Assembly (NCBI GenBank): GCA_963758525.1
Contig: CAVWVQ010000003.1
Span: 3,488,001-3,552,000, forward strand
Reading direction: 5' to 3'
DNA length: 64,000 nt
From: an uncultured Phycisphaerales bacterium
Lineage (GTDB): Bacteria > Planctomycetota > Phycisphaerae > Tepidisphaerales > Tepidisphaeraceae
Positions 8,765-49,347 of this stretch are shown here, one piece after another. The translations under genes and the position numbers were made by a program. Within the stretch, counting starts at the first letter, position 1. Each line of letters begins with the position of its first letter. Below the pieces are notes generated by a model. That model searched no databases. It was not told the DNA's origin and was given only the letters and a program-made list of their open reading frames with translations.

Positions 8765-8775
8765 TTTGCACTCCG

Positions 8776-10629
8776 TTACCCGTGCTGTTTTTGCAATAGG
8801 GTTGAAACCTTCGACAAACCGTTCCTGGCGCTGGCCAGGTTCGGATCCAAAATGAGGGCATGATGAAAATGCTCGGCGGCGTGCTGCAGATCGCCTCGCA
8901 TGAGAAATACGTTTGCCAGACTGGACTCGATCTTCGCGGACCCCGGATTCAATGCAATGCACCGTTCGAGTTCTTCGGTTGCGCTGGCCAAATCTCCCTC
9001 TGCCACGAACGCAACTGCCAGCCGGTAATGTGCGTCTTCGTCATTCGGTCTGGCGGCCAGGTAGAGCTTGTATTGTTTGACCGCTTGATCGAAACGCCCC
9101 AGGCCGACCAGTGCATCACCCCACTTCAGGCGGACGTGAAGTCTGGTCGGGTCGACTACCATTTCCATGTCATATAGCTGAACAGCTCCGTCCAACTCTC
9201 CCCGCTTGACCTCGGCATCGCCCAATGCTTCCTTCACGCCGGGTCTCACCGGGTGAAGCCGGATTGACTTGCGGAAATGCGCTTCGGCTCCCTCGTAATC
9301 CTGCTGTCGCGCCAGCTCACTGGCAATGTGACCTTCCGCCAGCCAGTTGTCCTCGACGGCGTTGTTCGCGTGGAGAAACAGCGAGTAATCGTCATGCCAA
9401 TAGCCGATCTGGCCCACCGTGAGGGCTGCGAGAACGGCGAGGATGGCGCCGATTCCCAGAGCGCATTTGCGCTGACCAAGAGGGTAGCGGTGTACAAACT
9501 CCGCGCCGATCCAGCAGATCGCGATCGTGATCCCGATAGACGGCAGATAGGTGTATCGATCGGCAATCGACTGCGACCCGACTTGCACCAGCCCGATCGC
9601 GGGAACCAGCAGTCCGCAGAACCACAGCCAGCCGACAATGAGATAAGGGCGACGTCGCGCCTGCCAAAGTGCGAGGGTCGTGAGCAGCGTCAGTAAAACC
9701 CCCGAGCAGGTGATCTCCCAGATGGGCCAAGTGGGGGACGGCAGCGGATAAAACACGCACAAGTCGATCGGCAAAAAGATCGCTTTCAAATATCGCGCAT
9801 ATCCGACACAACTGTTGGCGATCCGAAGGGGAAGCGTAAAGCTGCGTTCCATGACCGAACCGCCCGCGAACTGGGCTTCATAGGTCACGACGCACGAGGC
9901 GGCGGCCATGAGTAAAAACGGCACCTTCTCCAGCGCGAGCAGTGCTGCAGCGGACTTGTTCAATCTGCGCCATCGCTCGAGCGGCCAGTAATCCACAAGA
10001 ATCAAAAGGCACGGCAGGGTGACGATCATCGGTTTGGCCATCAATCCAAGGGCATAGCATCCGATCGCCGCCCAGTAAGATGCCGCTTTGGAATGGCGAA
10101 CGTAGTGTGCGTAGAACAGCAGTGTCAGAAAAAAGAAAAAACCGCACAGCACGTCTTTCCGCTCCGCGGTCCACGCCACCGACTCCACTCGCAGCGGATG
10201 CCAGGCAAAGAGGGCCGCGCAGATCGCGCTGGGCCATCGTTGACGAGTCGCGCCAAGAAGGAAAAGGAAAAGCAGCATGGCGTTGGCTGCATGCAGCAAG
10301 GCGTTGATCGCATGTGTCGCGGCAGGAAGATCCGCAAAGAGCTGGGCGTCGAGTTGAAGCGAGAGCCAGGTGAGCGGATGCCAGTTGGAGCCCTGCACGG
10401 TTGTGAAGGCCCACTTGAAATTGTCGACACTCAGGCCGGACAAAACGTGCTGATTATGGGCGACGTAGTCCATGTCATCGAAATCGACGAACTCATTTCG
10501 CAGGGAGGGGAGGTACAGCAGCAGTGTGAACAGGAACAGACTCGCGGCAATCCAGGGCGTTTTGATCGGCGGCGCGCTTTCCAGCGGCTGGGCGCTCTGC
10601 CTGGGGAATTGCGCGGTTCGTATCGACAT
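8776..10629 (-). CDS. TMTC-like (GT-C fold) membrane protein with C-terminal TPRs, paralog 1
   Basis: FVDFDD after TM1, WHPLTW, HPLRVESVAW..ERKDVL, LMAKPM, ADRYTYLP, then TPR helices. Confidence 0.85.
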   Translation of the reverse strand: MSIRTAQFPRQSAQPLESAPPIKTPWIAASLFLFTLLLYLPSLRNEFVDFDDMDYVAHNQHVLSGLSVDNFKWAFTTVQGSNWHPLTWLSLQLDAQLFADLPAATHAINALLHAANAMLLFLFLLGATRQRWPSAICAALFAWHPLRVESVAWTAERKDVLCGFFFFLTLLFYAHYVRHSKAASYWAAIGCYALGLMAKPMIVTLPCLLILVDYWPLERWRRLNKSAAALLALEKVPFLLMAAASCVVTYEAQFAGGSVMERSFTLPLRIANSCVGYARYLKAIFLPIDLCVFYPLPSPTWPIWEITCSGVLLTLLTTLALWQARRRPYLIVGWLWFCGLLVPAIGLVQVGSQSIADRYTYLPSIGITIAICWIGAEFVHRYPLGQRKCALGIGAILAVLAALTVGQIGYWHDDYSLFLHANNAVEDNWLAEGHIASELARQQDYEGAEAHFRKSIRLHPVRPGVKEALGDAEVKRGELDGAVQLYDMEMVVDPTRLHVRLKWGDALVGLGRFDQAVKQYKLYLAARPNDEDAHYRLAVAFVAEGDLASATEELERCIALNPGSAKIESSLANVFLMRGDLQHAAEHFHHALILDPNLASARNGLSKVSTLLQKQHG

Positions 10630-10707
10630 CCTACGGCCGATGATACTGTCGATCGCACCGAGTGTCCCAGACGCGACACACGAAGACACGAAGCATTCTG
10701 CGCTCCA

Positions 10708-12555
10708 TTACCAGTGACGCTGTTGAATGCGCGCTTGAACATCGGCCAACCCCGACCGGGCTCTGTCCAGTTTCGGATCCAAGGCGAGTGATCGCTGGTA
10801 GTGAGCCACCGCGCCATGCAAATCTCCTCGTGCGGCGAGCAACCCGGCGAGGCTGCATTCCGCTGAAGCCGACGTTGGATCCAACTGAATGCTCTTTTCG
10901 AGTTCCATGGTTGCGCCGGCATAATCATGCGCCGCTGCCGACGCGACCGCGAGGTTATTGTGCGCCTCCGCGTCATTCGGATTGGCCGACAGGTAAAGCT
11001 TGTAGTGCTCCGCAGCCTCATTGAAGCGGTTGTCCTGGAGCAGCAGGTTTCCCAATTTTCCATGCACACGCGGATTGTTGGAATCGACTTGCAATTCCAT
11101 GTCGTAGTATTGCAAAGCCTTCTCAAATTCCCCATTCTTTGCCAGGATATCGCCCAGCGCCTCCTTGACCCCGCGTTTTGTCGGGTGCCATTCCAACTCC
11201 TGGCGGAAATGCGCTTCGGCCCCTTCGTAGTCCTGCTGCTTCGCCAAGGCGTCGGCGATGTGGCCCTGCGCGACCCAGTTTTTGTCGACGGCATTGTCCG
11301 CGTGGAGAAACAACGAGTAGTCGTCGTGCCAGTAGCTGATCTGTCCTACCGTCATCGCCGCAAGAACGACAAGAATGCCGCCGGCTGCTAGTGCCAGCTG
11401 GCGTTCGTTGAGTGACCGCCGCCGCGCCAGTTCTTCCCCCATCCAACAGATTGCGATTGATATGCCAATTGAAGGAAGGTAGGTGTATCGATCGCCAATC
11501 GACTGCGAGCCGACTTGCACGAGCCCGATGGCAGGGACGAGCATGCCGCAGAACCAGAGCCAGCCGACGATCAGGAATGGACGGCGCCGGGTCTGCCAGA
11601 CCGCAATTGCAGTGACCACCGTGAGCAAAATGCCCGAGCTGGCGATTCCCCACACCGGCCACCGGGAAGGCAGCGGGTAGAACACCGCCAGATTGATCGG
11701 CAGGAAAATCTCTCTCAAGTAGCGCGCATACGAGACGCAGGCGTTGGCGATGCGCAGCGGGAATGCAAAACCTTCTTCCATTACCGCGCCGCCCGTTTTC
11801 TGAGCCTCGTAAGTCACGATGCTGGAGGCAATGGCCATGACCAGAAACGGAATTTTTTCCAGGCAGAGAACGAGAATTCGGGGCCTCGTCAGTTTTGACC
11901 AGCGTCGCAGAGGCCAGAAGTCCAGGAGGACCAGCAGACATGGCAAGGTGACGATCATCGGCTTGGCCATCAGCCCCAGGGCATAAAAGGCGATCGCCGC
12001 CGCAAGCCGTGGAGCACGCGACCTGCGGGCGTAGCGCACGTAACAGAGTAATGTCAGAAAGAAGAAAAACGCGCAGAGAACATCCTTCCGCTCCGCCGCC
12101 CATGCCACCGATTCCACTCGCAGCGGATGCCAGGCGAACAACGCCGCGCATATCGCGCTCGGCCAGCGCTGGTCGGTTGCGCCGAGAAGAAAGAAAAATA
12201 GCAGCATTGCGTTGGCGGCATGGAAGAGCGCGCTTACGAAGTGTGGGCCGGCTGGACGACCCGCGAACAGCTGACAGTCGAATTGGTGCGAGAGCCAGGT
12301 AAGGGGATGCCAATTGCATTGCCAAAACGTAGTGAAAGCCCAGATAGAATTGCCGGCGGTAAGACCGGTTAAAACGTGCGGATTGTCCGTGATGTAGCCG
12401 GGATCGTCGAAATTGATGAAGTCGTTGCGGAGGCTTGGAAGGTACAAGAGCAGCGTGCAGAGGAACAAGCCTGCCGCGATCCAATGGGTCTTGATCGCGA
12501 GCGTAACTCGGGTCTGTTCCAGCGGCCGGGTTAATGGCGCGGCGTTGGGGGCCAT
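10708..12555 (-). CDS. TMTC-like membrane protein with TPRs, paralog 2
   Basis: FINFDD, HPLRVESVAWAAERKDVL, GDRYTYLP, TPRs. Start taken at MAPNAAP; the longer upstream ORF extension overlaps the divergent paralog 3. Confidence 0.85.
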   Translation of the reverse strand: MAPNAAPLTRPLEQTRVTLAIKTHWIAAGLFLCTLLLYLPSLRNDFINFDDPGYITDNPHVLTGLTAGNSIWAFTTFWQCNWHPLTWLSHQFDCQLFAGRPAGPHFVSALFHAANAMLLFFFLLGATDQRWPSAICAALFAWHPLRVESVAWAAERKDVLCAFFFFLTLLCYVRYARRSRAPRLAAAIAFYALGLMAKPMIVTLPCLLVLLDFWPLRRWSKLTRPRILVLCLEKIPFLVMAIASSIVTYEAQKTGGAVMEEGFAFPLRIANACVSYARYLREIFLPINLAVFYPLPSRWPVWGIASSGILLTVVTAIAVWQTRRRPFLIVGWLWFCGMLVPAIGLVQVGSQSIGDRYTYLPSIGISIAICWMGEELARRRSLNERQLALAAGGILVVLAAMTVGQISYWHDDYSLFLHADNAVDKNWVAQGHIADALAKQQDYEGAEAHFRQELEWHPTKRGVKEALGDILAKNGEFEKALQYYDMELQVDSNNPRVHGKLGNLLLQDNRFNEAAEHYKLYLSANPNDAEAHNNLAVASAAAHDYAGATMELEKSIQLDPTSASAECSLAGLLAARGDLHGAVAHYQRSLALDPKLDRARSGLADVQARIQQRHW

Positions 12556-12651
12556 GTTGACGGCATCATGATACTGCCGGCCGGGTTGAGTGTCTCGGAC
12601 AAGGTCACGTCGAGCTTGACAGAACCGGTGGCTTGGTTCGAATGGCACGGT

Positions 12652-14517
12652 ATGGATCTCAGTCTCGCGACTGTGAATCGCGCAAGCGCCGGGGGGCGAC
12701 GAGCGGAGTTGCGCGCAGCCGGCATTGCGCTGCTCGCGCTGGCGCTGGCGATCCTCTGCGTATTCGGGCGGGCGACCCGCGCCGGGTTTGTCAGTTGGGA
12801 CGACCAGATTCACGTCTCGCATAACCCGGATTTGAATCCGCCGACGACGGAGTCGATCGCGAAATATTGGCGCGGGCCGCAGTTGGGCTTGTATATTCCG
12901 GTGATCTACACCGTCTGGGCCGGGCTGGCGTGGCTGGCGCGCTTGCCTATTGCGGATGCGGGCGGCATCACGCTCGATCCTTCGGTTTTCCATACCGCAA
13001 ATTTGATCGGTCACGGGCTGGCGAGCTTCCTCTGCTGGCAAATTCTTCGACGTCTGATTCCTGTCTCCAAGGCCCGCGACTGGGCGGCAGGCGCGGGAGC
13101 GATTCTCTTTGCACTGCATCCGCTGCAGGCCGAGCCGGTGGCTTGGGTGACCGGATTCAAGGACGTGCTCAGCGGCGTGTTTGCGTTTGGCGCGCTGCTG
13201 CTCTACGTCGTCGGACTGGAGAAGGAGCACGCGGGTGATCGCGCGTTTCAAGGGATCTGGTTTGCCCTGGCAACATCCGTCTACGCAGTAGCGCTGCTTT
13301 CCAAGCCTTCAACAACGTCTGTTCCGCTCATGGCGATCGTGATTGATCGCATGATTTTCCACCGGCCGTGGAAACGCAGCCTGCCTCTGATCGCTCTCTG
13401 GACGGCAATGGCGATAGTCCCTCTGCTCCTTACCCGCGGGGCGCAATTGTCGCTCATGATCTTTCGCCCGCAGGTGGAGTTGCGGCCGTTCGTAGCGCTG
13501 GACGCCATCGGATTTTACCTCGCGAAGTTGTTTCTGCCGCTTGGCTTGGGCGTGGATCAGGGGCGTTCGCCGATGACGCTGCTGCAACATGGAACGCTCC
13601 GGTGGAGTTGGATCCCAGCGGCATTGTTCTGCTGCGCGATCTGGCTCGGTCGAAAGCGATGGCCGGGGTTGATCGCGCCATCGCTGATCTTCCTGGCGGG
13701 GCTTGCCCCGGTGCTTGGCTTTTCGCCGTTCATCTTTCAGGATATCTCGACGGTCGCGGATCGATTCGCCTACCTCGCCATGCTTGGACCGGCGCTGTTG
13801 TTGGCGCAGATCGTCGCGGCATTTCCGAGGGAGATCACTTGGGTCGTCACAGGGACGGCGATTTTGCTGCTCGCGAGCCTCAGCTTCGTCCAAACGGGAT
13901 ATTGGCGCGACGATCTGAGCTTGATGACCCATTCCCTGCAAGTAGCGCCCCAGGTCGAACCTGTCACTGAGATGCTCGCCGCCGCGGTTTCAAGGGAAGG
14001 CGCTCTCGATCGCGGAGACACGCTGTACCGTCAGGCGCTTTCAATGAAGTGGGACGATGCGGCGGCGCTCATCGGTTTGGGAAGCAACATGCACAAGCAG
14101 CATCGCCTGCCCGAGGCGGCGCGATGCCTGCAAGAGGCGATCATCATCGAGCCGGGAAATGCTGACGCAAGATTCAACTACGGTAACGTGCTTCTTGCGG
14201 CGCGCGAGCCCGGCAGGGCTGTCGGGCAATATGAAATCGCGCTGCAGAGCCAACCGCGCAGCGTTCCGGTGCTGGTCAATCTTGGCGCCGCGTTGGCGAT
14301 GGCCGGAAGCTGGCAGCAAAGTGAAGCTATGTTCCGCAGGGCGCTCGAGGCGGCCCCCGCGAGCGCCAAAGCGCATTTCGGCTTGGGCCGCGTGCTCGAA
14401 CAGCGGGGTGATTTAGCCGCCGCGCTGGCAGAATATGAAGCCGCGCTGGAGCAGAATCCGCAGCTCGCGCAGGCGCAAAACGGGCGGACTCGGGTCGTTG
14501 CAATGATGCAGCGATGA
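12652..14517 (+). CDS. TMTC-like membrane protein with TPRs, paralog 3
   Basis: FVSWDD, HPLQAEPVAWVTGFKDVL, LSKP, VADRFAYL, TPRs. Confidence 0.85.
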   Translation: MDLSLATVNRASAGGRRAELRAAGIALLALALAILCVFGRATRAGFVSWDDQIHVSHNPDLNPPTTESIAKYWRGPQLGLYIPVIYTVWAGLAWLARLPIADAGGITLDPSVFHTANLIGHGLASFLCWQILRRLIPVSKARDWAAGAGAILFALHPLQAEPVAWVTGFKDVLSGVFAFGALLLYVVGLEKEHAGDRAFQGIWFALATSVYAVALLSKPSTTSVPLMAIVIDRMIFHRPWKRSLPLIALWTAMAIVPLLLTRGAQLSLMIFRPQVELRPFVALDAIGFYLAKLFLPLGLGVDQGRSPMTLLQHGTLRWSWIPAALFCCAIWLGRKRWPGLIAPSLIFLAGLAPVLGFSPFIFQDISTVADRFAYLAMLGPALLLAQIVAAFPREITWVVTGTAILLLASLSFVQTGYWRDDLSLMTHSLQVAPQVEPVTEMLAAAVSREGALDRGDTLYRQALSMKWDDAAALIGLGSNMHKQHRLPEAARCLQEAIIIEPGNADARFNYGNVLLAAREPGRAVGQYEIALQSQPRSVPVLVNLGAALAMAGSWQQSEAMFRRALEAAPASAKAHFGLGRVLEQRGDLAAALAEYEAALEQNPQLAQAQNGRTRVVAMMQR

Positions 14518-14591
14518 AGCGGCGTTCTTGGCCGGCTTACAAGCCGAAGGCCCTTTACCTTCTGCCGACGCGGGTTAAGCTGCTTTTCACC

Positions 14592-15128
14592 ATGCACGCC
14601 AAGCCGCAGAAGATCGGCGTCTTTCCCGGGCAGTTCGATCCGATCACCAATGGACACGTGGATGTGATTCGGCGGGGGGTCATCCTTTTTGACCATCTGA
14701 TCGTCGGCGTCGGGGTGAATCCCGGCAAGCACGAACTCTTCACGCTCGACGAGCGCGTGAGGATGATTCGCACCATCGTGTCGGACATTCCCGGCGTTAC
14801 AGTCGAAAAATATCGCGGGCTCACCGTCGACTTCGTGAGAGCCGCAAAGGCCACGGCGATGCTGCGCGGCATCCGCGACGTGTCGGACCTTCGCTATGAA
14901 TTTCAGCTTGCGATGGCGAATCGCACTGTCGGCGGCGTGGAAACCGTGTTTATCATGGCCGGCGATCAGTACGCGTTGACCAGCAGCAGCCTCATTCGGC
15001 AGGTTGTCGCGTTGGGAGGTGATGTGCGCAAGCTGGCGTCCGTCGTGCCGGCGCTGGTTGTCGAGAAGATGCAGGAAAAGCAAAAGAAATTCGCCGCCCA
15101 CTGGGCCGCCGATGCGCCGGCAGAGTGA
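14592..15128 (+). CDS. coaD: Phosphopantetheine adenylyltransferase
   Basis: FPGQFDPITNGHVDVI, RGIRDVSDLRYE and SSSLIRQ. Confidence 0.96.
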   Translation: MHAKPQKIGVFPGQFDPITNGHVDVIRRGVILFDHLIVGVGVNPGKHELFTLDERVRMIRTIVSDIPGVTVEKYRGLTVDFVRAAKATAMLRGIRDVSDLRYEFQLAMANRTVGGVETVFIMAGDQYALTSSSLIRQVVALGGDVRKLASVVPALVVEKMQEKQKKFAAHWAADAPAE

Positions 15129-15186
15129 TAGCACGCCAGAGGCGTAGGGGCCGCCCCGACAAGCCTGTTGCGCCCGGATTAATACC

Positions 15187-15214
15187 TTGACATGCCTCCC
15201 GGCGCAGTTAGGAT
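15187..15214 (+). promoter_or_regulatory. Putative sigma70 promoter about 300 nt upstream of the pilin-like gene
   Basis: TTGACA-N16-TAGGAT. Confidence 0.6.
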
Positions 15215-15517
15215 TGCTTGGAGAAATCGAGGCTGAGAACGCTCTGCTCCGGCGGATGACGAGGAACGGAGCGCTTACTGCGTTTTTGCCTGGGTTCGGA
15301 TTATGCTCTTGAGGGTTCCCTCCCAATTAAGGTATGTTGCGCCGGCGGTGTTCGCCGGCGCTTATTTCCCCTGCTTCAAACTTGTACCTTTTTCTACACA
15401 CCGGTAGCCGGTTCCGTTGAAAGCGGATCTGTGCATGGCACTCATTTTAATTCTATCTGTCACCGGTTTGCGGAATGCACGTCCAAGCGAGAAGCGCTTT
15501 CTGAAAGGAGCTTCTTT

Positions 15518-16462
15518 ATGAAGAAGCTGCGTAATGTACAGAAGAGTTCCGAGGGCTTTACGCTCGTGGAACTGTTGGTCGTGATCGGGATTATCGCACT
15601 CCTGATTTCGATTCTGCTGCCGGCGTTGAATCGCGCCCGTGAGCAGGCCAACAGAGTCAAGTGCGCCAGCAACCTCAAGCAGATGGGCTTGGCGATGCAG
15701 ATGTACTCCAACGCCGAGAAGACGGGCGGGTTCCCTCGCACGTATTACTCGACCGGCGCAGGAGTCATCGTCACCAACCAGGGTTACGTTGACAACGGCA
15801 CCACCTCGGTGAACAGCTTCAACGGCACTCTTACCGGGATCAACAACGTCGGCGCGAGCTTCTTCCTGCTCCTCAAGACTCAGGATCTGACGCCGGAAGT
15901 GTTCATCTGCCCGAGCAGCAACGGCACCCGCGGGTTCCAGACCTTCTCGGTCCAGAACAGCAACAACTTTGGCGGTTGGGGTCCGGCTTCCTCGGCGAAC
16001 GTCACGGTCGAGACGATTCCCGACGTAACCTATAGCTACTGCGCGGGCTTCCCGCAGGCAGCTGCCTTGTCGGGCGGGTTCAAGTTCAACAACACCCTCA
16101 GCTCCGACTTTCCCCTCGCTGCGGACGTGAACCCCGGCACACAGACCATCAATGGTATTACCGGCGGAAGTCCCTTGACCGTCGCGCCCACGGATGCCCC
16201 TGCGGCGTCGGCCGGCCCGCACGGTCAGGCGTTCGGCAACACCATCAATCACAAGAATCAGGGCCAGAACGTCCTGTACGGCGACGGTCACGTGGAGTTC
16301 CAGACCACCTGCTGGGTTGGAAGCTATCGCAACACCGGATCGGCGACCGTTCGAGACAACATCTACACCAGCGGCACAGATATTGCTGCGGGTGGCGGTC
16401 AGTCCCTCACGGGCGGACCGCTTGATGCGTACGACTCCGTCCTGTTGCCGACCTCGAACTAA
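15518..16462 (+). CDS. Prepilin-type N-terminal cleavage/methylation protein (DUF1559, H-X9-DG C-terminal motif)
   Basis: [49 protein letters not shown]; strong SD GAAAGGAG upstream. Confidence 0.93.
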
Positions 16463-16694
16463 CCTGGTCCTTCAGCCGGACGGGACTTGCGGTTGCGGAA
16501 ACGCGGCTGCGAGCGTCGTGCGGTGAAGTTCGGTGAAGTTTCGAGATTCGATACCACACCCTGCGATCTGACGATGGATTCACATCGTCGGTCGCAGGGT
16601 GGTTTTGATGAATCGCAAAGTCCAGTTGGTCGATTTGCCTTTTGCCCGCCGAATTTAATGGGAATCCTTCCCGCCCGGCGATAAGCTTGCTGCC

Positions 16695-17171
16695 ATGGAA
16701 GAAGTGCTTCCGCCGCAGACGCAGGAAGGGGCCGGGTTCGAGCTCACTCGAATTCGGCAATTCACTGTCTTTCTCGAAAATCGGGTGGGGCGTTTGCGAG
16801 GGATGCTCGAAGCGTTGGAAGAAAATGCGTGCAAGATCGTGGCCCTCTCGATCGAGGAATCCGCGGACTCGGCCCTGGTTCGTGTGATCTGCTCCGCGCC
16901 TGAAAACGGACGCCAGCAGTTGCAGATCGCGGGATTCAGCTTTAGCGAGTCGGAGATTCTGGCTGTCGAGCTGCCACGCCGGAATCGGCACCCCTGGATT
17001 GCCATCTGCTCGGCGCTCTTGGCCGCGGAAATCAATATTCACTACGCCTATCCGCTGCTGCTTCCACCGCGCGGACCGGCGATCGCGCTCTACGTCGATG
17101 ATACCACGCTTGCCGCTCAGTTGCTGATTCGCAAAGGCTTTACGCTTGTCGGTGAAAGTGATCTGGTTTAG
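16695..17171 (+). CDS. ACT-domain protein
   Basis: QFTVFLENRVGRL...SADSALVR and EINIHYAYP. Confidence 0.85.
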   Translation: MEEVLPPQTQEGAGFELTRIRQFTVFLENRVGRLRGMLEALEENACKIVALSIEESADSALVRVICSAPENGRQQLQIAGFSFSESEILAVELPRRNRHPWIAICSALLAAEINIHYAYPLLLPPRGPAIALYVDDTTLAAQLLIRKGFTLVGESDLV

Positions 17172-17212
17172 CTCTCCCTTTGATGTCTGCCCGACTGCGA
17201 GCTGAATGCTTA

Positions 17213-19051
17213 ATGGTGCCTGAAGCGCGAAGATTGGCAGACGCTCCGAACATTCACGGCAGTAAGATCGCTGGACTGGTCATCGCAGCGGTGATCGCGC
17301 TTACTCTGTGGCCCCTTTGCATTTGCGAATTTACCAGTTGGGACGACAGCTATACCGTTTCTCAAAATCCAACCCTGAACCCGCCGGCAGCAGACAGTTT
17401 CAAGACATGGTGGACGCGGCCGGTACTGGACATGTGGGACCCGCTCACCTACCTGGTCAACGGCGCGTTGGCCGAAGTCGCGACCGTGACGCCCGATCCG
17501 GTCACCGGCGTCCGCCTGAATCCGTATGTTTTTCACACCGCCAATGTGCTGTTGCACGTCGGGAGCGCGCTGCTTGTCTTTCTGATCCTCCGTCAACTCG
17601 GATTCAGCGTGCCGTCGTCATGTGCCGCCGCACTGGTCTTCGGCATACATCCGGTTCAGGTCGAAGCGGTGGGTTGGGTTTCCGGCCTCAAGGACGTGCT
17701 GTACGGCTTCCTGTCATTAGCCGCTCTTCAGCAGTATCTGCTCCCCGCGCGCTCGCGTTTTTGGACAGCAACAGCGCTGTTCGTGATGGCGACATTGTCA
17801 AAGCCGACTGCGATCGTCGTGCCGGTCATCGTCCTCATCATTGTCCGCTTCAGAGACGGCCGCGCTGCGAGGCGGGCGTGGCTGCAAATGTCGCTGTGGG
17901 CGCTCCTCAGCCTCCCTTGCATCGTTATCACGAAGCTAGTGCAACCGGCGGCCCGCGTCGCTCCCATTGCCCTCTGGAAGCGGTTGCTCGTCGCACTGGA
18001 CGCACTGGCATTCTACCTGTGGAAGCTTCTCTGGCCGGCCTCACTAGGAGTCGACTACGGCCGCAGTCCCAGCTCGGCAATCAGCCACGGCTGGATCTAC
18101 TGGACATGGATCGTGCCCGCGGGGATCGCCGTCGTCCTATGCATCGCGCGTCCGCGACCGCGCGGTTTAATCGCTGGCGCGGCTATCTTCGTAGCGGGAT
18201 TGTCGCCAGTGCTCGGCCTGGTTCCGTTCGACTTTCAAGGCATCTCCACGGTGACGGACCATTATCTCTATCTGCCGATGCTTGGCGTGGCTCTTTCCAT
18301 CGCCTGGTCGCTTGACGAGGCGCAGCGCTTGATCGCGGCGAAAGGAGGTGCTCCGCAAGTTAATGGAAAATACTCTGTTCGATTGGCACTGCCGGTCACG
18401 GTCATCTTGCTTTTCCTTGCGGTTCGAAGCTGGTTCCAAACCTGGATCTGGCACGACACGCGCACACTCTTTGCGCACGCCTTGGAAGTCAATCCCGCTT
18501 CGGACGTCGCGGATAACAGTCTGGCTTCGATGTACCTGGCCTCCGGCGACCTGGAGGCCGCTCACCGCTACGCGATGCAGGCGGTGAAGGCCGCGCCCGA
18601 AAAGCCGGAAGGACGTCTGACCCTGACCGCCATCATAGCCGCCGAGGGGCACTTGGAACTGGCAGCCAAGCTCTACCGCGCAATTCTGGAGGACAACCCT
18701 CGTGAGGCAATGGCCGCAAGCGAGCTTTCCTCAGTGCTTGCTCAACAAGGTCATTTCGACGAGGCGATTTCGTTCGCCCGACGTGCCATTGCGATAGACC
18801 CAAATATCGTTGACGGGCACACAAATCTGGGCGCGGAGCTCGGAAACGAGCGGAAGTTTCCTGAAGCGGTCGAGGAACTGCAACGCGCGTTGCAGCTCAG
18901 CCCGCGATCGTTTCTGGCGCACTTGAACCTCGCGTCCGTGTACGCGGCGATGGGCGAGCGTGAAAAATCCGCCGAGCAGTATCAGGCCGCATTGGACCTC
19001 AATCCGCAGTCCGAGGCTGCGCGTCGCGGCCTGGAAGGCGTGCGTAATTGA
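17213..19051 (+). CDS. TMTC-like membrane protein with TPRs, paralog 4
   Basis: FTSWDD, HPVQVEAVGWVSGLKDVL, LSKPTA, TDHYLYLP, TPRs; start uncertain (17180-17213). Confidence 0.85.
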   Translation: MVPEARRLADAPNIHGSKIAGLVIAAVIALTLWPLCICEFTSWDDSYTVSQNPTLNPPAADSFKTWWTRPVLDMWDPLTYLVNGALAEVATVTPDPVTGVRLNPYVFHTANVLLHVGSALLVFLILRQLGFSVPSSCAAALVFGIHPVQVEAVGWVSGLKDVLYGFLSLAALQQYLLPARSRFWTATALFVMATLSKPTAIVVPVIVLIIVRFRDGRAARRAWLQMSLWALLSLPCIVITKLVQPAARVAPIALWKRLLVALDALAFYLWKLLWPASLGVDYGRSPSSAISHGWIYWTWIVPAGIAVVLCIARPRPRGLIAGAAIFVAGLSPVLGLVPFDFQGISTVTDHYLYLPMLGVALSIAWSLDEAQRLIAAKGGAPQVNGKYSVRLALPVTVILLFLAVRSWFQTWIWHDTRTLFAHALEVNPASDVADNSLASMYLASGDLEAAHRYAMQAVKAAPEKPEGRLTLTAIIAAEGHLELAAKLYRAILEDNPREAMAASELSSVLAQQGHFDEAISFARRAIAIDPNIVDGHTNLGAELGNERKFPEAVEELQRALQLSPRSFLAHLNLASVYAAMGEREKSAEQYQAALDLNPQSEAARRGLEGVRN

Positions 19052-19105
19052 AGATGATCGCAGGCCCAGCAAGGCGAGAAGTTTCTTCGGATCGGTCGAA
19101 TCAAT

Positions 19106-21073
19106 TCACCGCGGTCGTTCCGGCAGATCCCGCAACGCTGTGATCCGTTTGAGCCCCGCGATCGCGGCGGGGGCATCCGGCTGGATCGCGAGCGCCTGAC
19201 GATAGTGGAATTCGGCTTCGTCCAAATGGCCGCTGAGCGCGAGAACTGCCGCGAGACTGCATTGAGTCGTCACTTCTGACGGTTTGAGTCGGGCAGCCTC
19301 GCGCAGCTCTCGTATAGCGGCGGCGCGGTCTCCGGTTTCCGCAAGCGCAGTTCCGAGATTGAGGTGAGCGATCCAGGATTCGGGACGGAATTGAACAGCG
19401 AGCCGACCGTACCAAATCGCCAGATCATTTTGATGCGCGCTGCCGTAATTGGACGCGATGCGAACCGCTTCATCGCTGACCTTCGCGGGGTCCACCGCAT
19501 GACCGGCACGATACGCTTCCGCCGCCCGGTCCCAATGTCCCAGCTTTACTTCAGCGTCGCCCAGAGACATGTAAGCTTCGCTCCACTCGGGGCGTGCAGC
19601 AATGGCACGATGAAGGAGTGCGATTTCGGTATGAACATCCCCCATGTTGTCGTAACAGAAGGCGAGATTGTTCAGCGCGACGGGACTGACCGGGTTCACC
19701 GCCACAGCGTGAAAAAGCAACGCCATCGAATCCTGCCAGTAGCCCGTTTGGTGCCAGCTGATTCCTGCAAGCACGGCCAGAAGCATGCTGGCGGCTATCG
19801 CTCCGGCCCGATTCGCCCGCTGCACGACCCAGGCAAAGCAAATTGCCGCACCGAGCATCGAAAGATAAAGATATCGATCCGCGACCGATGAGTATGTCTG
19901 GAAATCGAACTGCAGCAGTCCAAGGACGGGCAGAAGCGGCACGGTAAACACTACCGCCGCCACGCACAGGACGCGGGCGCGCGCGCGGAAGAGCACTAAC
20001 GCCACCGCGAGGGAAGCCGGAAGGATCCAGGTCCAGTATGCCCACGCGTTTTGAAAGATCAGCGCGGGGCGTCTGCCGTAGTCGATGGCGAGCGTGGCGG
20101 GCCAAACCAGTTTATAGAGATAAAATGCCAGCGTATCCGCCGCGATAAACGGGCGTTGCCAAAAGTCCACGTGGTGGCGCTCCGTTGCTCCCGATTGCAG
20201 AAGCTTGGTCACGATCATCATGGGCATCCCCAGTACGATCCAAACGCCCATCTGCAACCATATTTTTCTGGGAATCGGCGACCGGCGCAGCCATATCAGC
20301 GGCAACGCGATCAGCGGCAAGATCACTCCGGTTGGCTTCGAAAGGGTTGCTAGCACAAAGAGGACGCTGGCAAGCACGAACTGCGCATTCGATTTCCACG
20401 GTTCCGCCACCGACCCTTTCGGCTGGTCGTCGACCGAAAATCCATCGGCGCGCAACAGCGCCCAGATCGCGGCCACGGAGAGAAATCCGCAGAGAATATC
20501 CTTCAAAGCGGTTGCCCATGCCACAGGTTCAACCTGCACGGGGTGCAGACCGAAGAGCAACGCGCCGCAGCATGCCGGCCAACGGTCCAAACGCAGCAGC
20601 AGCAGCACTCTGTACACCATCAGCGTCGTTAGAACGTGGAGCAAAACATTGTTGGCATGGAAGATATACGGGTTGAGTTGCGTGCGGGTGATGGGATCGA
20701 CCGTGCTTGTCGTCGCAAGCGCGAGCAGCCCCCGCCAAGTTTCCGTGAGCGGATTCCACATCCGCATATCCGCGCTCGTCCACCAGACCCTCAGGCTGTG
20801 GAGTGTGGGTGGCAGGAGTGTGCGATTGCGGTAAATCAGCATGTCGTCGTCCCACATGACGAAATCCGCTGTGAATGCCCGTGAGAATGTGAGGAGGGTG
20901 ATCGCGACGATCAGGAGAAACGGACCCCGTCTGTTCCAGCGACCCGCAGCGTCGCCCCCACTGTCAGCGGGCAAAGTGGAAGTTTTGCGGTCTTCGTTCT
21001 TCAGAGTAAGCCCGCGACTGATAGCCGCCCGTGATTGTAACGCTTCTCCAACAGCCTCCGAATCGTACAGCAT
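19106..21073 (-). CDS. TMTC-like membrane protein with TPRs, paralog 5
   Basis: FVMWDDD, HPVQVEPVAWATALKDIL, LSKP, VADRYLYL, TPRs; start uncertain. Confidence 0.85.
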   Translation of the reverse strand: MLYDSEAVGEALQSRAAISRGLTLKNEDRKTSTLPADSGGDAAGRWNRRGPFLLIVAITLLTFSRAFTADFVMWDDDMLIYRNRTLLPPTLHSLRVWWTSADMRMWNPLTETWRGLLALATTSTVDPITRTQLNPYIFHANNVLLHVLTTLMVYRVLLLLRLDRWPACCGALLFGLHPVQVEPVAWATALKDILCGFLSVAAIWALLRADGFSVDDQPKGSVAEPWKSNAQFVLASVLFVLATLSKPTGVILPLIALPLIWLRRSPIPRKIWLQMGVWIVLGMPMMIVTKLLQSGATERHHVDFWQRPFIAADTLAFYLYKLVWPATLAIDYGRRPALIFQNAWAYWTWILPASLAVALVLFRARARVLCVAAVVFTVPLLPVLGLLQFDFQTYSSVADRYLYLSMLGAAICFAWVVQRANRAGAIAASMLLAVLAGISWHQTGYWQDSMALLFHAVAVNPVSPVALNNLAFCYDNMGDVHTEIALLHRAIAARPEWSEAYMSLGDAEVKLGHWDRAAEAYRAGHAVDPAKVSDEAVRIASNYGSAHQNDLAIWYGRLAVQFRPESWIAHLNLGTALAETGDRAAAIRELREAARLKPSEVTTQCSLAAVLALSGHLDEAEFHYRQALAIQPDAPAAIAGLKRITALRDLPERPR

Positions 21074-21103
21074 TGGGCCGCTCGCGGACCACTTCGCGAT
21101 TGT

Positions 21104-22940
21104 TCAAGGCTTGGTCGTTGTCGGCAGTGCCGTGCGGGTCTTCATGCGCTGAATCGCGTCTTGAGCAGCACCCCTGTCGGGATCGATCGCCTCAGCCATC
21201 CGAAAATGGATCATTGCACCCGCGCGATCGCCAAGATGAAGCAGTGCCGAGCCAAGGTTGTACTGTGCGGTATAGTCGGATGAATCGAGCGCGGCCGCCG
21301 TCTCCAATTCGGTGCGCGCCTCCGGCCAGTTTCCCTCTTGCGCCAATGCAATGCCGAGGTTCAGATGGGAACGCGCCGAAGGCACTAATTCCACCGCCAG
21401 TCGCGCGAATGCGAGTGCTTGCCGCAGGTCCTTCTGGCGCAGCAACGCCGTTGTAAATTCGTTCAGCGATGCGGTGATCGCGTTGTCCGCCGCAAACCCG
21501 TCCCGAAATGCCTGCACCGCTTGCGGCGTCCTTCCGAGCCTCGCCAGCGACTTGCCGAGCGTCGCATACGCTTCGCCTCGGTGCGGATCCAGCGCGATCG
21601 AGCGGCGGGCAATTTCGACCGAACGCTCATAGTCTCGTTGCGCGCCGAGTTCGGCGGCAACACTCGCGCACGCCACCGCACTTTGGGGATCGTTGTCCAG
21701 AACGTGCCCGAATAGAGTCAGCGAATCGTGCCAGCAGGGGACCTGCAGAGCGCTGCGAACCGCCAGGATCGCCAGCGGAATCACTGCTGCAATTCGGCAA
21801 CCGCGAGGCAATCGCTCGAGTATATCTGCTGCGATTAACGCGATCCCGAACATCGAAAGGTAAACATAGCGGTCGGCAACGGTGGAAAAATATTGAAAGT
21901 TGAAGCCGACGAATCCAAGGACTGGAAGCACGCCAATGACGAAGATGCAGGTTCCCGCGAAGATCAACGGGTCGCGTCGCCTATTGACCCAGGCAGCGGC
22001 AATCAACGTTGCGGGTAAGATCCAAGTCCACCAGATATACCCATGCTGGATGATGAACGCAGGATTGCGACCGTAAAAGACCAGTAGTGTTTTCGGCCAG
22101 ACAATCTTGAAGAGATAGAACGCCAGCGCGTCCGCGGCAACGAGGGGCGCAGCCAGATCGCGAGCCTCTGAGTGTAGGGAGCTGGCTGCGAAAGCTTGGC
22201 GATGATGACGAACGGGATTGTCAGGACGCCCAGACGACAAGCCCGCGCCACGCGTGCCTGGGTATTCGGCCCCAGCGTGCCCAGATCAACGGCAGCGAGA
22301 CCAGCGGCAAGATCACCGCCGTCGGCTTTGACAGCATTGCCAGAAGCAAGCAGATGGTCGCAAAAAGGTAATTCCCCAGACCCTGCCCCCTGCGATCGCG
22401 AGGAGTCGCATCTGATGCGGGCGTGGCCGGGACTGCATCAATTGCCGCCAGAAACCTCCAGATTGCCAGAAATCCGAACCCGCAAAATAGCAAATCTTTG
22501 ATTGATGTAATCCAGACGACCGGTTCGACCTGAAGAGGATGTATTGCAAAAAGCATCGCCCCGCCGCAAGCGGGCCAGGGCCGGACTCTGCAGCAGAGCA
22601 GGAGTTGATACACCACGAGTGTCACTCCGACATGCAGTACGAGGTTCACTCTATGAAACACACGGGGGTTAAGTGTGTATCCGGTGTTCGGGTCAGGAGG
22701 CGCCTGAGCAAGCACGGCGACGCCGCCGCGCACGCTGGCGGTGAGCGGGTCGTACAACTGAAGGCACGGTTGCGTCCACCAGACTTTCAAGCTGTGAAGC
22801 GTTGGCGGATTCATCAGCGGATTCAGTGCTACCGTCCTGTCGTCATCGAGATTCACAAAGCCGTACCCCGAGGCCTGCCAGAAGACCAGAAGGATCGCGA
22901 CCACCAGCACTGCCCGTGTCAGCAGGTGTGAGGATCTCAC
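21104..22940 (-). CDS. TMTC-like membrane protein with TPRs, paralog 6, frameshifted around 22150-22260
   Basis: ORF 22221..22940 (FVNLDDD, HPLQVEPVVW), bridging frame 22003..22251 (IPFVIIAKLSQPAPYTQRL) and ORF 21104..22240 (ADALAFYL, VADRYVYL, TPRs) together align with paralogs 7 and 8. Confidence 0.8.
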
Positions 22941-24754
22941 GGCGCGACTCCAGCCGTCCGAGCTGCGGTCAGCTGCGCCACGCCAGCGACGGCATCCGGG
23001 TTGCCGGGGTCGATCGCGATCGCCGCTCGATAATGGGTCAATGCCGCGCTCCGATCACCCAGGTGAGCGAGCACCATGGCCAAAGACAATTGCGCGTCCA
23101 GGAGATCCGGATTCAGCCGAACAGCCGTCTCCAATTCCCGTCTTGCTCCGGGCCAATCGTTTGTTCTTGCAAGCGCGATCCCAAGCGTCATTCGCGTGGC
23201 CGCGTTCGAAATATATTCGACGTTCAATCGAGCGAACCTCAGAGCACGGGCGGAATCACCCTGGCGTAGGAGCATTGCCGCATAGTCATTCAGGTACGCT
23301 CCGGTTGCGGGGTCCGACTTGAACCCCTCTCGAAACGCCAGCATGGCCTGGTCGGTCTTTCCAAGGCGATCCAGATCCCGTCCAAGGGTCGCATAAGCCT
23401 CGGAACGATGCGGATCCAAGCGGATCGATTGCCGGGCCAACTCGGCGGAGCGCTCATAGTCTCCTTCGAACGCGAATTCGCTGGCAAGATTGGCATTTGC
23501 AACGGCGCTGCCCGGGTCATTGTCCAGAACATGCGTGAACAGCGTGACCGAATCGCGCCAACAGGGAACTTGCATCATGCTGCGCCACGCGAGAACCGCC
23601 AGGAGCGGGCCACCCAATATTGAGCCGCCGCGCGGAAGTCGCTGCAGAACTGATGCGGCGATCAGCGCAATACCAAGCATCGATACGTAGAGGTACCGAT
23701 CGGTGACGGTAGAAAAATATTGAAAGTTGAAGCTGAAGAATCCCAGCACGGGGAGCAGTCCGCCAACGAAGACACAGATGCCTGCGAATGCGGCCGCGTT
23801 GCGCCGACGATTGAGCCAGAGGAGCACGATGGCAGCCGCTGGCACGGCCCAAGTCCACCAGATAAAGCTGTGCTCGATGACGTATGCCGGGCTTCGGCCA
23901 TAGAAGACGAGCAGGGTTTTCGGCCAGATGATCTGAAAGAGGTAGAACGCCAGCGCGTCGCCGGCCACCAGAAAGCGCTGCCAAGGCACCAGCCGCTGGG
24001 CATAGGGCGCTGGTTGAGCGGACTTGGCAATGAGGATGAACGGGAGCGCGATCAGGCACCAGATTCCCAGCCGGATCCAGGCTCGCATGGAGATCCGGCG
24101 GCAGGCCAGCCACACCAGCGGCAAGGCCAGCAGCGGCACGATCACGGCCGTTGGCTTCGAGAGAACCGCCAGCACGAAACACAGCGTCGCCAGAAGATAA
24201 TTCCCCAGGCCGCTGGTCGCATTCGCGCCACCAGCGGCATGGGGCTGTGCGCCACCGGAGCGGTCTTCAAGAGAAACCAGAAGCCGCCAGATCGCCAGTA
24301 ATGCGAAGGTGCCATACAGCAGGTCCTTGACGGAGGTGATCCAGACCACCGGCTCGACCTGCACGGGATGAATCGCAAAGAGCATCGCTCCGCCGCAGGC
24401 CGGCCACGGCCTGATCCGAAGATAGAGCAGGAGCTGATACACCAGCAGCGTCACCCCCATGTGCAGCAGCAGATTGACGGTGTGAAAGACCCAGGGATTG
24501 ATCGCGTCTCCCGTTTGCGGGTCCGGCGGAACGCGAGCGAGCGAAGCGATGGCAGCGCGGACCGTTGCGGTCAGGGGGTCATAGAGCTGGAATTGCGGCG
24601 TTGTCCACCACACCTTGAAGCTGTGCGGCGTGACCGGATTCATCAGCGGATTGCGCACCACCAACTGACGGTCGTCCAGATTCACGAAATCGTACGTGCA
24701 GGCCCGGCCGAACGTCAGCACAATGGCGACCACGAGGATCACGCGAGCCATCAT
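22937..24754 (-). CDS. TMTC-like membrane protein with TPRs, paralog 7
   Basis: FVNLDD, HPVQVEPVVWITSVKDLL, TDRYLYV, TPRs. By comparison with paralog 8 the true start may be ATG 24831, which is 1 nt out of frame. Confidence 0.87.
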   Translation of the reverse strand: MMARVILVVAIVLTFGRACTYDFVNLDDRQLVVRNPLMNPVTPHSFKVWWTTPQFQLYDPLTATVRAAIASLARVPPDPQTGDAINPWVFHTVNLLLHMGVTLLVYQLLLYLRIRPWPACGGAMLFAIHPVQVEPVVWITSVKDLLYGTFALLAIWRLLVSLEDRSGGAQPHAAGGANATSGLGNYLLATLCFVLAVLSKPTAVIVPLLALPLVWLACRRISMRAWIRLGIWCLIALPFILIAKSAQPAPYAQRLVPWQRFLVAGDALAFYLFQIIWPKTLLVFYGRSPAYVIEHSFIWWTWAVPAAAIVLLWLNRRRNAAAFAGICVFVGGLLPVLGFFSFNFQYFSTVTDRYLYVSMLGIALIAASVLQRLPRGGSILGGPLLAVLAWRSMMQVPCWRDSVTLFTHVLDNDPGSAVANANLASEFAFEGDYERSAELARQSIRLDPHRSEAYATLGRDLDRLGKTDQAMLAFREGFKSDPATGAYLNDYAAMLLRQGDSARALRFARLNVEYISNAATRMTLGIALARTNDWPGARRELETAVRLNPDLLDAQLSLAMVLAHLGDRSAALTHYRAAIAIDPGNPDAVAGVAQLTAARTAGVAP

Positions 24755-24783
24755 GGTGGTCCGCGGGAGCTCGAGATTGCTCC
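23911..24783. repeat. ~870 bp near-identical direct repeat, copy 1
   Basis: Matches 25857-26729 at an offset of 1946 nt with scattered substitutions. Confidence 0.9.
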
Positions 24784-24873
24784 TTGCGCTTCTTCCAGCG
24801 ATGACTCAAGGATCGGGCTCGCAGGCTTCATGAAGGGGAGTTCCAGCTCACGATTCTCTCGTTCTGCCGAGAT

Positions 24874-26778
24874 TCACGGTTGGCTTGTCACAGGCTGAGT
24901 TGCGGCGTGGCTGACCAACTGTTTCAGCCCCGCGAGCGCGGCCGGGTTCTCGGGATCGATTGATACCGCCAATTCGTAATGCAGCCGCGCGCCCGCGAGA
25001 TCGCCAAGATGAAGGAGCACCGAGGCGAGATTGCACTGCGCCTTGTAGTCATTTGGATCGAGTGCCGCCGCACTCTGCAACTCGCGTTTCGCTCCCTGCC
25101 AGTCGTTTGTCTTTGCGAGTGCCACGCCAAGATTCACGTAAGTCGACACCCTGGGGAATAGTTCGGCGCTCAATTCCGCAAATGCCAGAGCGTGCCGCGC
25201 GTCCCCATGGCGGACCAGCGCCGCCGTGTAATCGTTCAAGGGCCCCTTCATTCTCGCATCAGCGCGAAAGCCCGCGCGAAACGCCTCAATGGCCGCGGCT
25301 GTGTTTCCAGTGACGTCCAGGGATTTGGCGAGCGTGACATAGGGTTCGCAGCGATGAGGGTCGAGTGCGATCGATCGCCTGGCGTATTCGATCGATCGAT
25401 CATAGTCCCCCTGATCCGCAAACACGACGGCGAGACCGGCATGGGAGACAGCGCTCCGCGGATCGTAATCCAGCACATGGTTGAACAGCGTCAGCGAATT
25501 CTGCCAGTAAAGCACCTGCGCAAAGCTCCGCATCGCGAGGATCACAAGGAGGATACCCCACATTGCGCCATAACCTTTCGGAACGCGATCGAGGGCCGAG
25601 GCGGCGATCAGTGCGATGCCGAACATGGGGATGTAGAGGTAGCGGTCCGCCACCGTCGAGTAATATTGAAACTCGAAGCCGACAAATCCAAGAATCGGAA
25701 GCAAGCCAACGGCGAAAATCGACATACCTGCCAGTGCTGATGGGCAGCGGCGGCGGTTGACCCAGAGAATGGCAAATATTGTTGCCGGTGCGATCCACGT
25801 CCACCAGATGAACCCATATCGCAGGATGTACCCGGGAGTTCGGCCGTAATACAACAGCAGGGTTTTCGGCCAGATGATCTGAAAGAGGTAGAACGCCAGC
25901 GCGTCGCCGGCCACCAGAAAGCGCTGCCAGGGCACCAGCCGCTGGGCATAGGGCGCTGGTTGAGCGGACTTGGCAATGAGGATGAACGGGAGCGCGATCA
26001 GGCACCAGATTCCCAGCCGGATCCAGGCTCGCATGGAGATCCGGCGGCACGCCAGCCACACCAGCGGCAAGGCCAGCAGCGGCACGATCACCGCCGTTGG
26101 CTTCGAGAGAACCGCCAGGACGAAACACAGCGTCGCCAGAAGATAATTTCCCACGCCGCTGGTCGCATTCGCGCCACCAGCGGCATGGGGCTGTGCGCCA
26201 CCGGAGCGGTCTTCGAGAGAAATCAGAAGCCGCCAGATCGCCAGTAATGCGAAGGTGCCATACAGCAGGTCCTTGACGGAGGTGATCCAAACCACCGGCT
26301 CGACCTGCACGGGATGAATCGCAAAGAGCATCGCTCCGCCGCAGGCCGGCCACGGCCTGATCCGAAGATAGAGCAGGAGCTGATACACCAGCAGCGTCAC
26401 CCCCATGTGCAGCAGCAGATTGACGGTGTGAAAGACCCAGGGATTGAGCGCGTCTCCCGTTTGCGGGTCCGGCGGAACGCGAGCGAGCGATGCGATGGCG
26501 GCGCGGACCGTTGCGGTCAGGGGGTCATAGAGCTGGAATTGCGGCGTTGTCCACCAGACCTTGAAGCTGTGCGGCGTGACGGGATTCATCAGCGGGTTGC
26601 GCACCACCACCTGACGGTCATCCAGATTCACGAAATCGTACGTGCAGGCCCGTCCGAACGTCAGCAGAATGGCGACCATCAGGATCGCGCGAGCCGCCAT
26701 GGTGGTCCGCGGGAGCTCTCGATTGCTCCGCACGGATTCTTCCAGCGGCGGCTCAAGGGTCGAAGTCGCCGCTTTCAT
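24874..26778 (-). CDS. TMTC-like membrane protein with TPRs, paralog 8
   Basis: FVNLDD, HPVQVEPVVW, VADRYLYI, TPRs; start MKAATS overlaps the upstream stop (ATGA). Confidence 0.87.
   Translation of the reverse strand: MKAATSTLEPPLEESVRSNRELPRTTMAARAILMVAILLTFGRACTYDFVNLDDRQVVVRNPLMNPVTPHSFKVWWTTPQFQLYDPLTATVRAAIASLARVPPDPQTGDALNPWVFHTVNLLLHMGVTLLVYQLLLYLRIRPWPACGGAMLFAIHPVQVEPVVWITSVKDLLYGTFALLAIWRLLISLEDRSGGAQPHAAGGANATSGVGNYLLATLCFVLAVLSKPTAVIVPLLALPLVWLACRRISMRAWIRLGIWCLIALPFILIAKSAQPAPYAQRLVPWQRFLVAGDALAFYLFQIIWPKTLLLYYGRTPGYILRYGFIWWTWIAPATIFAILWVNRRRCPSALAGMSIFAVGLLPILGFVGFEFQYYSTVADRYLYIPMFGIALIAASALDRVPKGYGAMWGILLVILAMRSFAQVLYWQNSLTLFNHVLDYDPRSAVSHAGLAVVFADQGDYDRSIEYARRSIALDPHRCEPYVTLAKSLDVTGNTAAAIEAFRAGFRADARMKGPLNDYTAALVRHGDARHALAFAELSAELFPRVSTYVNLGVALAKTNDWQGAKRELQSAAALDPNDYKAQCNLASVLLHLGDLAGARLHYELAVSIDPENPAALAGLKQLVSHAATQPVTSQP
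25857..26729. repeat. ~870 bp near-identical direct repeat, copy 2
   Basis: Matches 23911-24783. Confidence 0.9.
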
Positions 26779-27443
26779 GAATGCGCTTTCAACTTCACGA
26801 CTTTCTGTTCCTCCTCGTGCGACATCAGGATCCCACCCAGTTCCGGCGCCCATTTCAGTTTTGCGACGGCTGCATCGAACGCGTCACGCGTCTTGAACCG
26901 TTCGCGCCGCAGCACGCGGTTCTGCTGGCCGACTTTTTCCCAGCCGCCGAACTCTTCTTCGAAGTACCAGAGCTCAACCCGCCAGATGACTTCGCCCTTT
27001 CCATTGTAAAAATCCTTGTCGCGTACCAATTGCACCAAAACGGTTGCGCGGGTGTGATCGCCACTCACGGCCAGGATGTCGCTTTTGTTGTAGAACGAAG
27101 GAATATCGACGATCGCTTTGATCGCGGCCCGGTCATCATCGGTCAGCTCGCCGGGGTACGGTTTGGGCGGCTCGTCGTTGTACCATCCGAGATCGACGCC
27201 CTGAATCACGCTGCCATCCGCAAGCTCCAGATGGACATCATAACTGGCGTGGGCGATGAGTTTGTCGAAGAAAACGGATTGATCGCCCACCACTCCCGAG
27301 GCAACGCTCTTCGGCTCGGCAGACGTGGCGGTCGCGGATGAAATCTTCATCCCTGCGGGCGTCTTGACGGTTAATGACAGCGGCCGCTCCGCGCCGAGGA
27401 AAGCCATCGCCAAGAGCGGAAAAACCCAGATTTTCGATCGCAT
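26775..27443 (-). CDS. Exported hypothetical protein
   Basis: Signal-peptide-like MRSKIWVFPLLAMAFLGA; translationally coupled to paralog 8. Confidence 0.75.
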   Translation of the reverse strand: MRSKIWVFPLLAMAFLGAERPLSLTVKTPAGMKISSATATSAEPKSVASGVVGDQSVFFDKLIAHASYDVHLELADGSVIQGVDLGWYNDEPPKPYPGELTDDDRAAIKAIVDIPSFYNKSDILAVSGDHTRATVLVQLVRDKDFYNGKGEVIWRVELWYFEEEFGGWEKVGQQNRVLRRERFKTRDAFDAAVAKLKWAPELGGILMSHEEEQKVVKLKAHS

Positions 27444-27488
27444 GAAAACCGCTCCAGATGGTGCCATGGTATCGACAAACACGGCGAC

Positions 27489-31894: not shown

Positions 31895-31951
31895 ATCGGC
31901 TTTCAGCGCCGCCGGTCCGTGGCTACAATCCCGCCCTTTACCGGGAGAACC

Positions 31952-49280: not shown

Positions 49281-49347
49281 CAACCTTGGAGCGACGATGA
49301 TGCCGATCCACTAATTGCACGAATTGAGTGTGGTGGTATCTGAGTTG

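Follow-up and report, generated by a model that had tools for sequence, protein, structure and literature searches.

The 64,000-nucleotide window analysed here, from an uncultured Phycisphaerales bacterium of the Tepidisphaeraceae, carries eight genes (g1 to g8) whose products join a membrane domain of the glycosyltransferase GT-C type to C-terminal tetratricopeptide repeats (TPRs), as in the animal proteins TMTC1–4 (CAZy GT105; Pfam PF08409 + TPR). Source names on homologues also indicate a Tepidisphaeraceae-like planctomycete. The cluster is well formed, belongs to a known family and outsizes those of the relatives examined. A membrane-domain profile search of the 6.47-Mb genome recovered 11 family members, eight of them within 18 kb, a degree of clustering that exceeds chance. 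We lean slightly towards the reading that the eight are inner-membrane enzymes that would move one sugar, which need not be mannose, from a polyprenyl-phosphate carrier to periplasmic acceptors, in the likeliest case Ser/Thr residues on surface or exported proteins.

Coordinates are positions of the whole window, and gene starts are the best choice among alternatives. g1 (8776–10629, minus strand; 617 amino acids (aa)) belongs to a widespread subfamily and carries FVDFDD, AERKDVL and DRYTY; g2 (10708–12555, minus; 615 aa) is an old duplicate of g1, with an amino acid identity of ~70% in the membrane domain and 52% in the TPRs. A separate subclade is represented by g3 (12649–14517, plus; 622 aa), the protein chosen for structural modelling. 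The remaining genes are g4 (17180–19051, plus), in which the last loop motif has DH instead of DR, g5 (19106–21073, minus), a member of the g4–g8 clade, g6 (21104–22940, minus), g7 (22937–24754, minus) and its partner g8 (24874–26778, minus), the start of which overlaps the stop of an upstream 235-aa open reading frame (ORF). An initial annotation of this DNA had described an array of eight genes of about 600–660 aa within 18 kb, in both orientations. All eight are present, but the run is interrupted by coaD, a DUF1559 pilin-like gene and an ACT-domain gene between g3 and g4, and g6 lies in two ORFs (239 + 378 aa) rather than one open frame. Near 22230 and near 22145, its alignment to g7 shows a one-base gap, in each case inside a short single-base run. 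The assembly is indel-prone, with 14 of 79 conserved genes tested, about one in six, being split (700 of 706 relatives' ORFs used as queries); g6 is therefore more likely intact than decayed, and assembly errors are the likely cause of its split. At this split-gene rate, apparent pseudogenes in this genome call for read-level caution.

Family members outside the array lie at C3:669–673 kb (two) and C3:2200 kb (one); of these three (C3:669443–673272 and C3:2199718–2201904), one is split and has the dyad YIWDDD, and one is divergent with a long branch. A promoter-like site, G.GACA-17-TATCAT, occurs on the minus strand at 10640–10668 and 12568–12596, 11–13 nt upstream of the likely g1 and g2 starts; because the same site precedes both genes, it was probably duplicated together with the gene. 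Overall, the scan for promoters and terminators gave no more sites than chance would (5 found versus 5.2 expected; 16 versus 19.7).

The proposed GT-C fold was checked by structure modelling and structure alignment. An AlphaFold2 model of g3 (predicted local distance difference test (pLDDT) 95.5, predicted template modelling score (pTM) 0.92; 123 aligned sequences) aligned through its membrane part (residues ~14–446) to Pmt1–Pmt2 chain B (6p2r; Z 19.4, root-mean-square deviation 4.3, 344 residues), Pmt4 (Z 19.2), AglB (19.1), human OST-B (18.3), ArnT (18.2) and ALG12 (17.5). Across these six GT-C structures (Z 17.5–19.4 over 313–347 residues), which span the Pmt/POMT, AglB/STT3, ArnT and ALG12 enzymes, sequence identity is 9–13%, and a sequence search of the Protein Data Bank (PDB) with the g1 and g3 membrane domains returned nothing at E ≤ 10. 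The model thus supports a GT-C fold for the membrane domain; it was built for g3 alone, and the other seven proteins are assigned the fold by homology. The structure search covered 48,161 chains and its top ranks were filled by TPR-arm matches; no TMTC chain was among the best 50 structure matches listed, which leaves one possible lower down. A full-alignment PDB search likewise gave TPR proteins as its best 60 matches, and Foldseek with the full model gave TPR matches only, among the matches listed. TPRs stand here in the place of the MIR or OST soluble domains. In the short loops of g3, the predicted cytoplasmic ones are richer in Lys/Arg than the outer ones, a charge bias that fits an outward-facing acidic dyad and TPR arm.

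The dyads quoted after the first helix in the initial annotation (FVDFDD, FINFDD, FVSWDD, FTSWDD, FVMWDD and three times FVNLDD) were all found, giving DD in 8/8 proteins; the motifs HP..xE.V.W, KD.L, [SA]KP and D[RH][YF].Y each occur in all eight genes, and C-terminal TPRs score above Pfam cut-offs in every protein, in its C-terminal third. Over the 123 aligned sequences, conservation is 90–100% at the D, H, E, K and D positions of the shared motifs. Of the seven motifs listed for TMTCs in a table of PMC7801869, we mapped M1–M5 and M7, by their order along the chain rather than by sequence alignment. On this mapping, the M1 DD, the M3 Asp and the M4 Lys are present in 8/8, the M7 Arg in 7/8 and the M3 Arg in 2/8; the DD after the first helix, an FAxHP..E.V stretch, the M3 Asp, the M4 Lys and the M7 Arg thus stand in the same order as in animal TMTC1–4. 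TMEM260, a GT-C+TPR O-mannosyltransferase of IPT domains described in PMC10214176, also shares 11 predicted helices, TPRs and a catalytic loop-1 Asp with these proteins; it is a separate family, its PF11028 was not matched in the Pfam scan, and TMEM260-like clusters in the Atlas reached only 0.81. The TPR arm here is shorter than the arm described for TMTC3.

This conservation makes it very unlikely that any or all of the eight serve without catalysis, as anchors that tie TPR scaffolds to the membrane. Inactive GT-C-fold proteins such as PIG-U do exist, as noted in PMC7801869, and by the ligand assignments of that source the proposed metal ligands are gone, while in g4 a His replaces the Arg predicted to bind phosphate, and g6 is in two pieces; against this, DD, Lys and Asp are retained in 8/8 and across the 123 sequences, and the KP form is family-wide rather than a local decay. 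Catalysis with a polyprenyl-phosphate sugar is, in our judgement, highly probable, and a protein acceptor (the pilin case below included) fairly probable.

In the proposed mechanism, a DPM-synthase-like GT2 encoded elsewhere would load the lipid carrier and the TPR arm would recruit the acceptor; the loop-1 Asp-Asp may then activate the acceptor hydroxyl, with the donor phosphate held by the SKP Lys and the DRxxY Arg. TMTC and TMEM260, two characterised GT-C+TPR families, modify proteins with their TPRs facing the lumen, and TMEM260 activity needs the loop-1 Asp, according to the descriptions in PMC7001481 and PMC10214176. A planctomycete S-layer protein has 13 O-glycan sites, for which the sections available of PMC5088730 name no enzyme. 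By analogy, these two strands, protein-modifying relatives and a planctomycete O-glycoprotein, argue for the protein-acceptor reading.

Several observations weigh against that proposal. The M2 motif (SHKSYRP, a proposed mannose contact) is shrunk to Y/W-x-P in 8/8, the M4 Glu is Pro in 8/8, and the M5 Asp is found in only 3/8 and never followed by Trp, the latter two positions being proposed metal ligands in the motif table of PMC7801869. PF08409 (DUF1736) reached at best 12.8 bits in this genome (cut-off 27, E 0.68), on g4, where the sub-threshold match falls on the expected loop, ahead of the predicted eighth helix; in 201 genomes of the class it had no match at E ≤ 1e-4, a search in which controls were silent too. 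The cluster is without a donor synthase, a flippase or a clear acceptor: no PF00535 (GT2) or PF04138 (GtrA) match lies inside the window, and the nearest GT2 is ~200 kb off. In favour of the proposal, candidate donor genes exist elsewhere in the genome: a 235-aa GT2 at C2:68.8–69.5 kb, whose best NCBIfam matches are lipid-phosphate sugar synthases, all below cut-off, and a GT2 adjoining a GtrA gene at C5:155–156 kb. Finally, ArnT and ALG12 align to g3 nearly as well as Pmt does. The likeness to TMTC claimed in the initial annotation is therefore borne out for architecture and motif order and fails for the mannose- and metal-binding residues (as assigned in PMC7801869) and PF08409; given these altered motifs and the PF08409 result, we label the proteins TMTC-like rather than mannosyltransferases and read them as TMTC-like GT-C enzymes with a predicted donor site unlike the animal one.

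Since Z scores of enzymes with lipid or glycan acceptors (ArnT, ALG12) come within ~1–2 of those with protein acceptors, the fold does not name the acceptor. We regard it as unlikely, though of some weight, that the eight are active GT-C transferases acting on lipid or envelope polysaccharide, ArnT-like or like three-component systems, with a TPR arm that merely docks to an envelope complex. The near-equal alignments speak for it, as do the many GT2 genes in the genome (47 matches), the altered mannose-related TMTC motifs and the statement in PMC7801869 that GT-C homology alone does not fix activity. The genome has, however, a separate PMT_2/ArnT-like GT-C set (11 matches above cut-off), no polysaccharide genes adjoin the cluster, and the characterised GT-C+TPR families act on proteins.

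The family itself is large. Of 8,000 scored candidates, 7,690 matched the g1 membrane domain at E ≤ 1e-60, and these matches include, by source name, Verrucomicrobia, Acidobacteriota, Nitrospiria and Thermodesulfobacteriota; with the g5 membrane domain, 112 of the 141 genomes in the bacterial family, source genome included, gave a match at E ≤ 1e-40. Full-length TMTC homologues with TPRs were stated in 2021, in PMC7801869, to occur in many poorly characterised prokaryotes; these share the same architecture and are usually labelled 'TPR protein', some being called 'protein O-mannosyl-transferase' by JGI. We found no study of a characterised bacterial member in the open-access literature, subscription journals and supplements being outside the search. 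No Pfam family scored above cut-off on the membrane part of the eight, the best being PMT_2 on g2 (E 0.0017). In the Atlas, the g3 membrane domain lay near PMT_2 clusters (0.98) and near a eukaryotic DUF1736 cluster (0.93, with 193 of 256 features shared), which is a lead only; for g1, with PMT_2 and TPR clusters skipped, an unnamed bacterial cluster was best (0.90). Among 30 relatives, g3 matches per genome ranged from 0 to 10, versus 11 here (split pieces counted), so that the genome-wide copy number is at the top of the range and not far beyond it. What sets this locus apart from those of relatives is its eight copies, compared with at most three per region examined, and a converted g7/g8 pair seen only here.

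Paralogue phylogeny gave three origins (g1/g2; g3; g4–g8). Membrane-domain trees were built with 131, 43 and 36 rows, subsets being chosen to cover each paralogue's neighbours. g4, g5, g7 and g8 grouped with the coaD-linked copy of a same-genus genome, G002 (96/82; 36-row tree, its bootstrap still short of convergence); in the 43-row tree, g6, represented by its N-terminal piece, joined g7 and g8. g3, together with metagenomic proteins, formed a clade of its own with full support, and g1 and g2 fell in the widespread subfamily. These trees indicate that one resident gene multiplied into g4–g8 and that two unrelated subfamily lines, g1/g2 and g3, sit alongside. A g1-like protein and a g3-like protein each come, by their records, from a contig of 36,478 bases, a hint that another organism has the same mix. 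The approximately unbiased (AU) test rejected one tandem expansion as the source of all eight (p = 9e-5 for the seven intact genes as one clade; LG+G4), and also a clade of g3 with g4, g5, g7 and g8 (p = 1e-5; LG+G4), a group named after the tree had been seen.

Silent sites were near saturation in all paralogue pairs tested except for the 5' half of g7/g8, indicating that the duplications are old; a recent duplication burst is ruled out on the same grounds. The TPR tails are divergent, as the initial annotation had it, with a nonsynonymous divergence (dN) of 0.39–0.44 versus 0.16–0.33 in the membrane domains. This faster change fits acceptor diversification, and it also fits the usual looseness of repeats.

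The exceptional pair is g7 and g8. Codons 17–281 are 98% identical, with a synonymous divergence (dS) of 0.064 and a dN of 0.007 (17 differing codon sites, 13 synonymous and 4 not), and identity switches sharply near nucleotide 845, at a conserved loop motif, to 53–55% in the remainder. For the 5' half, the best reading is a recent gene conversion with purifying selection acting on it, and the pair as a whole, with recently homogenised 5' halves and old, divergent 3' halves, amounts to a natural domain swap. An assembly artefact could in principle produce such a near-identical half, the assembly being indel-prone and its contamination listed as 6%. We consider this extremely improbable, as the excess of synonymous over nonsynonymous sites is a pattern errors do not give, and all other paralogue pairs tested are near silent-site saturation.

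The genes around the cluster are mostly shared with relatives. pgeF/yfiH (7964–8785, minus; TIGR00726 above cut-off) is a conserved neighbour, and coaD, for phosphopantetheine adenylyltransferase (14514–15128, plus; TIGR01510 above cut-off), is the single-copy anchor of the neighbourhood, its longest start overlapping the g3 stop by 4 nt. Two further conserved neighbours follow on the plus strand, a DUF1559/N-methyl pilin-like protein with 20% Ser+Thr (15515–16462), which is a possible acceptor, and an ACT-domain pair protein (16695–17171). Upstream of g8 is a 235-aa protein (26775–27482, minus) with no Pfam or NCBIfam match; in loci from four relatives, its homologues sit close to a family gene or to coaD. 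ORFs without such a match also occur at 28986–31199, 31301–32803 and 783–2213.

Neighbours recurring in relatives' loci are lysA, purM, a STAS gene, pgeF, coaD, the DUF1559 pilin-like gene and the ACT gene. A family match lies within 10 kb of coaD in at least 38 of the 128 relatives that have coaD, a lower bound because 100 family matches are outside the count and contigs are often short. Of 40 regions centred on coaD, 21 had a family gene (0–3 per region), 29 the pilin-like gene, 24 pgeF and 20 the ACT gene. These regions were picked down the coaD ranking, some short or already-fetched contigs being skipped, with family-gene positions already seen; as a family gene was present in 6 of the first 20 regions and 15 of the second 20, 21/40 is not an unbiased rate. 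Contig scans for the context of g3 reached distant relatives only (28–41% identity). An unpublished genome (G004) is one of the 38 relatives, counts as one genome in the family tallies and contributes some loci; no conclusion depends on it. The cluster is thus an enlarged form of an old, family-wide neighbourhood of pgeF, coaD, the pilin-like gene and the ACT gene. The initial annotation had proposed a dedicated O-glycosylation locus, and this is not upheld: the neighbours are family-wide housekeeping genes, the cluster contains no gene for donor synthesis, and its eight members come from three separate lines.

A narrower possibility is that the g4–g8 line is a dedicated transferase for the neighbouring pilin-like protein, with the expansion diversifying pilus glycans, much as for TfpW, the Pseudomonas aeruginosa pilin arabinosyltransferase. 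The TfpW gene adjoins its pilin gene. At a distance from coaD of up to about 10 kb, a pilin homologue is found in 29 of the 40 regions and a family gene in 21; the 20% Ser+Thr of the pilin-like protein here is the highest of 18 DUF1559 ORFs scored (of 27 matches), with 13–24% in 32 homologues. TfpW, in the account of 10.1101/2020.04.19.049825, is likewise a membrane transferase with a periplasmic loop 1 that glycosylates pilin; we liken it by description, and the pilin link here is positional only. The pilin-like gene and the family gene may, however, both simply ride with coaD, the former occurring in 17 of the 21 regions that have a family gene and in 12 of the 19 that lack one; other prepilin-like ORFs have 11–22% Ser+Thr (36 ORFs), and the closest neighbours, pgeF and coaD, are implausible acceptors. 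With the pilin-like gene occurring both with and without a family gene, and its Ser/Thr content only at the upper end of its class, the link is weak, and we regard this possibility as improbable; the pilin-like neighbour is a weak candidate, the only positional one, for an acceptor. Near-identical tandem copies of the coaD-linked pilin-like gene are present in several relatives (L056, L061, L063 and L066), as expected for a bulk protein.

Taking the protein-acceptor reading to its most specific form, these genes in Tepidisphaeraceae-like planctomycetes would be periplasmic protein O-glycosyltransferases, a TPR-guided and possibly metal-independent bacterial counterpart of TMTC. The coaD-linked line would glycosylate the neighbouring Ser/Thr-rich pilin-like protein, and paralogue expansion plus half-gene conversion in g7/g8 would pair one donor-handling N-half with different acceptor-selecting C-halves, varying surface glycans. 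We put this combination forward as a long shot. Among environmental bacteria this is a very large family, and protein O-glycosylation, if true, would be a new bacterial pathway that informs the origin of animal TMTCs; this value attaches to the family as a whole and not to the eight-gene locus. What the locus adds is a neighbourhood that is fixed across the family and includes a candidate acceptor, the pilin-like protein, and, in g7/g8, a common DD-bearing N-half joined to differing C-halves and TPRs, which may serve as a natural test of which half picks the acceptor.

Elsewhere in the window, topoisomerase VI B and A genes occur, in a bacterium, at 58822–62104, the B gene apparently being split into two ORFs. 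An IS1182-like transposase lies at 47922–49283, under the NCBIfam cut-off. At 49315–52269, a split PMT_2/ArnT-like GT-C gene stands beside a GT9 heptosyltransferase-like gene, possibly for lipopolysaccharide modification.

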